Shown in pieces: positions 3,425 through 4,806 of a stretch of 64,000 bases of DNA. Position numbers and translations under genes: made by a program. The notes beneath the pieces were generated by a model, which had not been told where the DNA came from, did no database searches, and saw only the letters and a list, made by a program, of their open reading frames with translations. Numbering within the stretch: position 1 is the first letter of the stretch; each line of letters starts with the position of its first letter. Where the stretch lies: the NCBI RefSeq assembly GCF_057098645.1, contig NZ_CM169472.1. One strand, written 5' to 3'.

Positions 3425-4806
3425 TTTCCACCTCCTGCATCCCGCCCACGTTTTGCAGCCAGAGTCCAGCCTGATGAATGAGCTTCTCCGGGCTTATCAC
3501 CGGTCATACTGTTGCAGTGCCACAACGAGCCCCCCCACGTCACCGTATCGCCGGGGTGGTAAGTTTCGCCGATTCTGAACACACCACGGTAGAGCATCAC
3601 CGGCAGGGAAAATGTTTTTTCCGTACGCTGGCCACTGCTCTGCCGAACCACCACAGAGAACGACCGTTCACCCGTCATGCTGACGTCAATATCCGCCACC
3701 CCGTCAACCAGGCATTCCCATCCCCGCATCCCGTACGTTTTTTCATACGCCCGCCAGAGTCCACCCTGGTGTGTGGCATACGAGCCCCGGGGAAAGGATT
3801 TTTGATCGTCAATGGCGGGGAGTATTTCCAGTGCCGTGGCATCACGCCCGTCCTGCGGAGCCGGCAGGGCACTCACCGCCTCCAGAACCGCCTTCTGCAG
3901 AACATCCGGATCGTAGTCACGACCATCACGCGGAACAGGAATATGGCTTACGGCCTCCTTCACCATCTGTTCAAGCATCGGATGCACATCATCCGGAGTG
4001 ATACTTTTACCGTCTGCCGGTACCGGTATTTTCGCGACCGCATCATTCACCGCCTTCTGCAGAACATCCGGATCGTAGTCACGACCGTCGCGCGGAACAG
4101 GAATATGGCTCACTGCCTCTTTCACCATCTGCTCAATCATCGGACGCACATCATCGGGGGTGATACTTTTGCCGTCTGCCGGTACCGGAATATTCGCAAC
4201 CGCATCATTCACCGCCTTCTGCAGAACATCCGGATCGTAGTCACGACCGTCGCGCGGAACAGGAATATGGCTCACTGCCTCTTTCACCATCTGCTCAATC
4301 ATCGGACGCACATCATCGGGGGTGATACTTTTACCGTCCGCCGGTACCGGAATATTCGCAACCGCATCATTCACCGCCTTCTGCAGAACATCCGGATCGT
4401 AGTCACGACCGTCGCGCGGAACAGGAATATGGCTCACTGCCTCTTTCACCATCTGCTCAATCATCGGACGCACATCATCGGGGGTGATACTTTTACCGTC
4501 CGCCGGTACCGGTATTTTCCCGACCGCATCATTCACCGCCTGCTGCAGTACATCCGGATCATAGTCACGACCATCACGCGGAACAGGGATATGGCTTGCT
4601 GCGTCCTTCACCATCTGCTCAAGCATCGGACGCACATCATCACCCGTCACGCACTTCTGTAATACCACAGACTGAGAAGCCAGTTTTTCTTCAAACGTTT
4701 GTGCCTGCGCGGCTATTTTCTCCTCAAATGTACGCTGTAAATCCGCCAGCACCATGGCGAATTCTTCGCCCAGTGCACGAATAATGGACAGTTCCCGTTC
4801 CGTCAT
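3421..4806 (-). CDS. Repeat-containing structural protein (possible head decoration or morphogenesis protein)
   Basis: 461 aa with about five tandem 54-aa repeats (ITPDDVRPMIEQMVKEAVSHIPVPRDGRDYDPDVLQKAVNDAV...); lies between portal and connector genes. Confidence 0.5.
   Translation of the reverse strand: MTERELSIIRALGEEFAMVLADLQRTFEEKIAAQAQTFEEKLASQSVVLQKCVTGDDVRPMLEQMVKDAASHIPVPRDGRDYDPDVLQQAVNDAVGKIPVPADGKSITPDDVRPMIEQMVKEAVSHIPVPRDGRDYDPDVLQKAVNDAVANIPVPADGKSITPDDVRPMIEQMVKEAVSHIPVPRDGRDYDPDVLQKAVNDAVANIPVPADGKSITPDDVRPMIEQMVKEAVSHIPVPRDGRDYDPDVLQKAVNDAVAKIPVPADGKSITPDDVHPMLEQMVKEAVSHIPVPRDGRDYDPDVLQKAVLEAVSALPAPQDGRDATALEILPAIDDQKSFPRGSYATHQGGLWRAYEKTYGMRGWECLVDGVADIDVSMTGERSFSVVVRQSSGQRTEKTFSLPVMLYRGVFRIGETYHPGDTVTWGGSLWHCNSMTGDKPGEAHSSGWTLAAKRGRDAGGGK
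3880..4690. repeat. Tandem 162-bp direct repeats (about 5 copies) inside the 3421-4806 CDS
   Basis: The motif catcattcac recurs at 4041, 4203, 4365 and 4527, an exact 162-bp period; flanking sequence is near-identical between copies. Confidence 0.85.

Follow-up and report, generated by a model that had tools for sequence, protein, structure and literature searches.

In an E. coli prophage, the gene immediately downstream of the portal gene, here called X, encodes a 461-residue protein built around a tandem-repeat array, and we consider it probable that this protein is a fibrous accessory component of the virion, whose repeats form a shaft, which is probably trimeric, and which is specified by a gene separate from that of the neighbouring portal. 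The ORF list and its translation place X at positions 3421-4806 of the minus strand (stop codon 3421-3423) in the window, that is, the whole stretch of 64,000 nucleotides analysed. Upstream lies an HK97-type portal gene (4803-6167, minus strand, 454 amino acids; PF04860, 6.8e-81; TIGR01537, 2.1e-106), and downstream a gene for a gp6-like head-tail connector (3098-3424, minus strand; PF05135, 1.7e-07), which is preceded by an AGGAGG site and whose GTG start overlaps the X stop codon. Together with the translation, these profile matches of the neighbouring genes bear out the initial annotation, which had placed the repeat in frame within a head-module gene. At the other junction, which was read directly, the ATG of X (4804-4806) overlaps the TGA of the portal gene (4803-4805), a stop/start overlap also found in relatives with ~67%-identical portals; more distant relatives have a portal/X overlap of 8-17 nt or a gap of a few bases.

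X belongs to a family with 5413 cluster representatives at E<=1e-3, and the gene order portal, X, connector is found in all contexts examined, which extend from 96% to ~36% identity. In Ralstonia phage YO088_5, which has a 41%-identical portal, the connector gene follows directly after the portal gene with no X in between, and X is thus an optional add-on. X itself (3421-4806) matches neither of the portal profiles PF04860 and TIGR01537, and its matches to a PHROG 'portal' family cover only positions 527-859 of an 859-position profile that spans a portal-X fusion; the 'portal' label that X carries in databases stems from such fused alleles. A Pfam scan of X gave no match to the MuF domain PF04233. 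Pfam matches to TetR_C_35, FliG_N and DUF4244 were set aside as noise from repeated amphipathic helices, no single stretch passing alone, and a faint 'QatB' match, listed for X in a protein database as PF28083, was disregarded. Neither the X sequence alone nor a profile of 98 sequences revealed a relative among PDB sequences, the profile bringing up nothing but designed helical repeats and chitin-binding domains, with weak E-values, and our literature search found nothing on a protein of this family, its repeat polymorphism or its fusion to the portal, and no experiment on any member.

The repeat array is evident at both the nucleotide and the protein level. Tandem Repeats Finder reports a single array at 3887-4641 (period 162, 4.7 copies, 94% matches, 0% indels, score 1293), and a separate repeat search, with a reference copy of 300 nt at 3875-4174, finds three further copies at a spacing of exactly 162 nt and with identities of 93, 93 and 86%. 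In the protein, five units of 54 amino acids make up residues 56-325, equivalent to nucleotides 4641 down to 3832 of the minus strand, and unit-by-unit comparison places units 1 to 5 at 4480-4641, 4318-4479, 4156-4317, 3994-4155 and 3832-3993. A repeat of such length and identity cannot have arisen by chance. The initial annotation had described about five in-frame copies of a 54-codon unit within the 461-residue ORF, as is the case, but its term 'near-perfect' suits only units 2, 3 and 4, which are 96.3-98.8% identical in pairwise DNA comparison (2-6 differences, 0-1 amino-acid changes), and not unit 1 (~90% identical to units 2-4) or unit 5 (~77% identical to the other units). Its upper bound of 4690 was likewise too high, as 4642-4806 encodes a non-repeated N-terminal helix. 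Each 54-residue unit in turn consists of two related half-units of ~27 residues, in which a helix is followed by an IPVPxDGxxxxP loop. The mechanical ORF listing also contains a 394-amino-acid ORF on the plus strand over the array (3478-4662), which was not taken for a gene, as it is wholly antisense to the conserved coding repeat.

Related loci reveal that the array varies in length, the number of units ranging from 1 to 7 among 54 distinct intact alleles of related E. coli prophages. Matches to X are present in 1246 of 5426 complete E. coli genomes, where, as in Stx-phage records, they span 1386, 1224 and 1062 bp, the lengths expected for 5, 4 and 3 copies. Inner units are 96.6% identical within one array and 90.7% identical to units at the same position in other arrays, a closer likeness within than between arrays that indicates concerted evolution of the units. 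The earlier suggestions that copy number may differ between strains, and that the copies reflect recent expansion or ongoing homogenisation, are in agreement with these figures. Unequal recombination between near-identical units would change their number, and the same recombination would keep the inner units homogeneous, such that the number of 162-bp units would set the length of the shaft. Chi sites were rejected as the cause of such recombination, as none occurs in the array or elsewhere in the prophage part of the 64-kb window.

An array of this kind might also be produced by the collapse or over-expansion of repeats during assembly, the circumstance that the initial annotation had named as grounds for abandoning its reading. 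Short-read contigs often do break within the array, many database proteins are marked 'partial', and in 37 loci the reading frame falls short of the conserved C-terminus, 26 of them ending at the edge of their DNA. Against this, the 5-, 4- and 3-copy spans recur across complete genomes and in independently sequenced phages such as BP-4795, which has 5 copies, and the array is always in frame, with allele lengths that differ in exact steps of 54 amino acids in all but the 405-residue alleles. Because the same architecture is seen in hundreds of independent complete genomes, the array is not an assembly artefact, an explanation whose probability we regard as negligible.

X can be divided into three parts, each with a distinct predicted structure. 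In the AlphaFold model, the non-repeated N-terminal region (amino acids 1-55; 4642-4806) is one long helix spanning residues 3-53, with pLDDT values of 91-96 over residues 1-40, and both this helix and the conserved C-terminal domain (amino acids 326-461; 3424-3831) are predicted at pLDDT >90. The shaft is modelled at low confidence in the monomer (pLDDT 41-77), with predicted helices that alternate with loops of roughly 11-12 residues; it comprises ten modules of ~27 amino acids, each an amphipathic helix and a PxPxDGxD loop, two per 162-bp unit. The C-terminal domain, which is the most conserved part of the X family and the part whose alignment retrieved related loci, consists of two beta modules of the carbohydrate-binding module (CBM) family 5/12 fold, small modules of about 45-60 residues. 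In X the Pfam CBM_5_12 score is 18.1 bits, as against a gathering cut-off of 26.2, and matches to the same profile are found in 48 of 98 relatives (E<1e-3; best 3.2e-08). Its best structural matches are fibres of Agrobacterium phage 7-7-1 (9rkv) and of phage Milano (8fqc) and a baseplate protein of an Anabaena injection system (7b5h), with which it shares the pattern Y..GD.V.W.G..W...T...P, common to the chitin-binding domains of chitinases. Unlike X, which is encoded in the head-neck module, these three proteins are products of tail or baseplate-module genes, are attached to the baseplate and possess unrelated shafts.

The relatives also provide a clue to the oligomeric state. At least six consecutive Gly-X-Y triplets occur in 29 of the 98 relatives, with up to 21 in a row, either at the loop sites or after the tip, and Pfam Collagen matches are found in 10 of the 98 (best E 1e-16); the protein in the window has no such run, only single G-x-D triplets in its loops. 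Collagen-like runs of Gly-X-Y form only as three-chain helices, and the expansion of loops into such runs therefore makes it most likely that X is a homotrimeric fibre. The proposed fibre would have an N-terminal helix of ~50 residues, a shaft of ten modules and a C-terminal pair of CBM5/12-like domains, and differences in repeat number such as those seen here are commonplace among phage fibres.

A precedent for a fibre of this design is fibritin (Wac) of phage T4, a trimeric fibre, as X would be if the predicted trimer is correct, in which helical segments are broken by loops, an N-terminal end serves for attachment and a small beta domain forms the C-terminus. Fibritin is a dispensable accessory fibre for adhesion and sensing that is encoded beside neck genes, and what is established about it suggests a possible mode of working for X. 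No match in sequence or fold was found between the two proteins, and unlike fibritin X carries a tandem CBM5/12-like tip rather than a foldon, has relatives with collagen-like runs, and has a neck location that is putative. X would be attached to the portal vertex or the neck, or close by, and its tip may bind glycans, providing accessory adhesion in the manner of neck whiskers or head fibres. X would also be present in few copies per virion, and its ribosome-binding site (AGGGGG, 11 nt from the ATG), which looks weak beside the AGGAGG of the capsid gene, is more in keeping with a low-copy component than with a decoration of the whole capsid.

Such a decoration had been suggested in the initial annotation, in which the repeat was thought to encode a modular capsid decoration domain. 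The repeat is indeed modular, but its unit is a pair of helix-loop shaft modules and not a domain seated on the capsid. In a broader form of the proposal, trimers of X would sit on many capsomers as head fibres that mediate loose adhesion, much like gp8.5 of phi29 or the collagen-like capsid spike gp12 of SPP1, both of which are dispensable and thought to aid adhesion (PMC7602432). The fibrous and probably trimeric design of X is compatible with this role, whose helix-loop repeats, like the Gly-X-Y runs of its relatives, are reminiscent of the designs of gp8.5 and gp12, and at least one relative does without X. The beta-tulip base by which phi29 gp8.5 binds the capsid is missing from X, however, and no similarity in sequence or fold was found between X and any known decoration protein or its capsid-binding base, including the Ig-like Hoc and pb10, the beta-tulip gpD, phi29 gp8.5 and SPP1 gp12, nor any similarity in sequence to solved structures. 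The X gene is moreover tied to the portal gene, and not to the capsid gene, by synteny, by overlapping stop and start codons and by recurrent fusion; a capsomer-bound protein would gain nothing from being fused to the portal, and with so weak a ribosome-binding site hundreds of copies per virion would not be expected. We thus regard a capsid-wide location as distinctly unlikely and continue to favour an accessory fibre associated with the portal or neck.

The relationship between X and the portal is complicated by a run of G residues in the last portal codons (aGGGGGa, 4818-4822, minus strand), identified from the junction sequence and comparison of related loci, which probably serves as the Shine-Dalgarno site for X. 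A run of five G residues (G5) yields two genes, and a run of six (G6) yields an in-frame portal-X fusion; of 100 related loci, 59 carry G5 and 41 carry G6. Phages 2851 and YYZ-2008 possess the in-frame fusion, and phages BP-4795 and 1717 are annotated with two ORFs. An independent portal-X fusion of 1237 amino acids occurs in 4 contigs of a lineage of ~40% identity, and no fusion was seen in any of 29 relatives whose portals are 52-69% identical. Comparison of these sequences indicates that separate genes are the ancestral state as well as the state in the window, and that fusion is derived. RefSeq annotation by PGAP labels such loci 'phage portal protein, frameshifted', which wrongly marks the separate two-gene state as a broken portal gene.

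Were that label correct, X would amount to the C-terminal half of one long portal, and the two ORFs of the window would represent either a frameshift pseudogene or a gene that requires a programmed -1 frameshift. Besides the PGAP label, this reading can draw on PHROG 2271, the 859-position 'portal' profile that spans the fusion, and on the sequence of the junction, where a -1 slip of tRNA-Gly on GGGGG before a rare ATA codon would yield the exact fusion protein. The G5-frame portal ends in RGILRK before its stop. Relatives whose portals are ~67% identical end correspondingly in RGLLTK, and in every one of them the two genes are separate, with overlapping stop and start codons. X is intact in all 39 G5 alleles whose reading frame extends to the conserved C-terminus. 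A slippery site with a conserved open shifted frame was not found among the relatives, the G run being confined to the E. coli lineage. Several of the ~67%-portal relatives have a -1-frame stop immediately ahead of the ATG, such that no conserved frameshift is possible, and in more distant relatives X lies in the +1 frame; programmed -1 frameshifting was accordingly rejected as a feature of the family. With no portal-profile match in X and a two-gene state that is conserved in relatives and annotated as such in BP-4795 and 1717, X was rejected as a part of the portal protein, and the long-portal explanation is very improbable.

The fusions nevertheless pose a difficulty for an external fibre. 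In solved portals the C-terminus faces the interior of the capsid, and its fusion to X at 41 of 100 loci, plus an independent fusion in a distant lineage, is hard to reconcile with a location outside the shell. Alternatively, X would lie inside the head, held by the flexible C-terminal tails of the portal crown through a covalent link in G6 phages and a non-covalent one in G5 phages. There it would organise the DNA and the portal interior, as does the portal barrel of P22, or it would exit through the tail at infection, for which SPP1 gp7, MuF and gp44 of phage 80alpha are precedents, and its CBM-like tip might bind the glycan strands of peptidoglycan. In addition to both sets of fusions, this explanation draws on the position of X just downstream of the portal gene, a slot that in other phages holds internal proteins of the MuF/gp7 type, and on the conservation of the tip across phages of very different hosts, which is unusual for a host-specific receptor-binding tip and accords with a universal ligand, for example peptidoglycan or a virion component. 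In Arthrobacter phages with portals of the HK97 type there are genes annotated as 'portal and MuF-like fusion protein'. The resemblance to SPP1 gp7 and Mu gpF (MuF) is one of position only, the gene lying directly downstream of the portal and sometimes fused to it in frame, and each is apparently a low-copy component; in contrast to the globular fold of MuF, X has a fibrous repeat and CBM architecture and no MuF domain match. The G6 fusions likewise resemble the C-terminal barrel of the P22 portal in having a long helical extension after the portal crown, but in X the fusion is derived, the extension bears repeats and a beta-domain tip, a disordered linker of ~40 amino acids separates the crown from X, and there is no sequence similarity.

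The portal tail is a further point in favour of internal docking. A BLASTP alignment of the portal with HK97 gp3 ends at residue 397, and beyond it amino acids 398-454 (4806-4976, minus strand) form a linker of low complexity and, after it, a short amphipathic helix. This arrangement was seen on all 8 X-linked portals, and the helix was absent from all 6 X-less portals examined. Tail length was rejected as a marker of X, at 16-48 residues without and 47-63 with it; only the terminal helix co-occurs with X, and it overlaps the X ribosome-binding site. Since a conserved K/R-G of the tail coincides with the X Shine-Dalgarno site, the motif may instead reflect nucleotide constraint, and since fusion forms retain the internal ATG and ribosome-binding site, free X could still be made from them. 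The fusion is also a derived state, absent from the 29 relatives noted above. Finally, collagen-like runs, segmented helices and CBM5/12 tips are features of external phage fibres, and no internal capsid protein with such features is known. Internal docking is therefore, in our estimation, unlikely, if less so than a capsid-wide decoration.

A more speculative proposal, and one that we rate as quite improbable, is that X would represent a new class of protein, a trimeric fibre carried on the flexible portal-crown tails inside the capsid, with the G5/G6 run toggling between non-covalent and covalent attachment, and with the non-covalent form perhaps ejected through the tail during infection, its CBM-like tip then binding cell-wall glycan. 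If true, this would amount to an ejected lectin-like fibre in a long-tailed phage, and the hypermutable G run would constitute a heritable switch between the two states.

The X gene occurs in about 1250 of 5426 complete E. coli genomes, and Shiga-toxin producers are numerous among these; its family is large, widespread and adjacent to the portal in all contexts examined. Because RefSeq marks the natural two-gene state as a broken portal, such prophages may be scored as defective when they are in fact intact. The array of 1-7 copies explains the breaks seen in short-read contigs of these prophages, and the 162-bp repeat could serve as a marker for prophage typing. Locating X in the virion would fill a gap in the parts list of a common HK97-like head type, the one whose genes run in the order terminase, protease-capsid fusion, portal. 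The recurrent fusion of X to the portal C-terminus presents a concrete and easily tested puzzle of virion topology.

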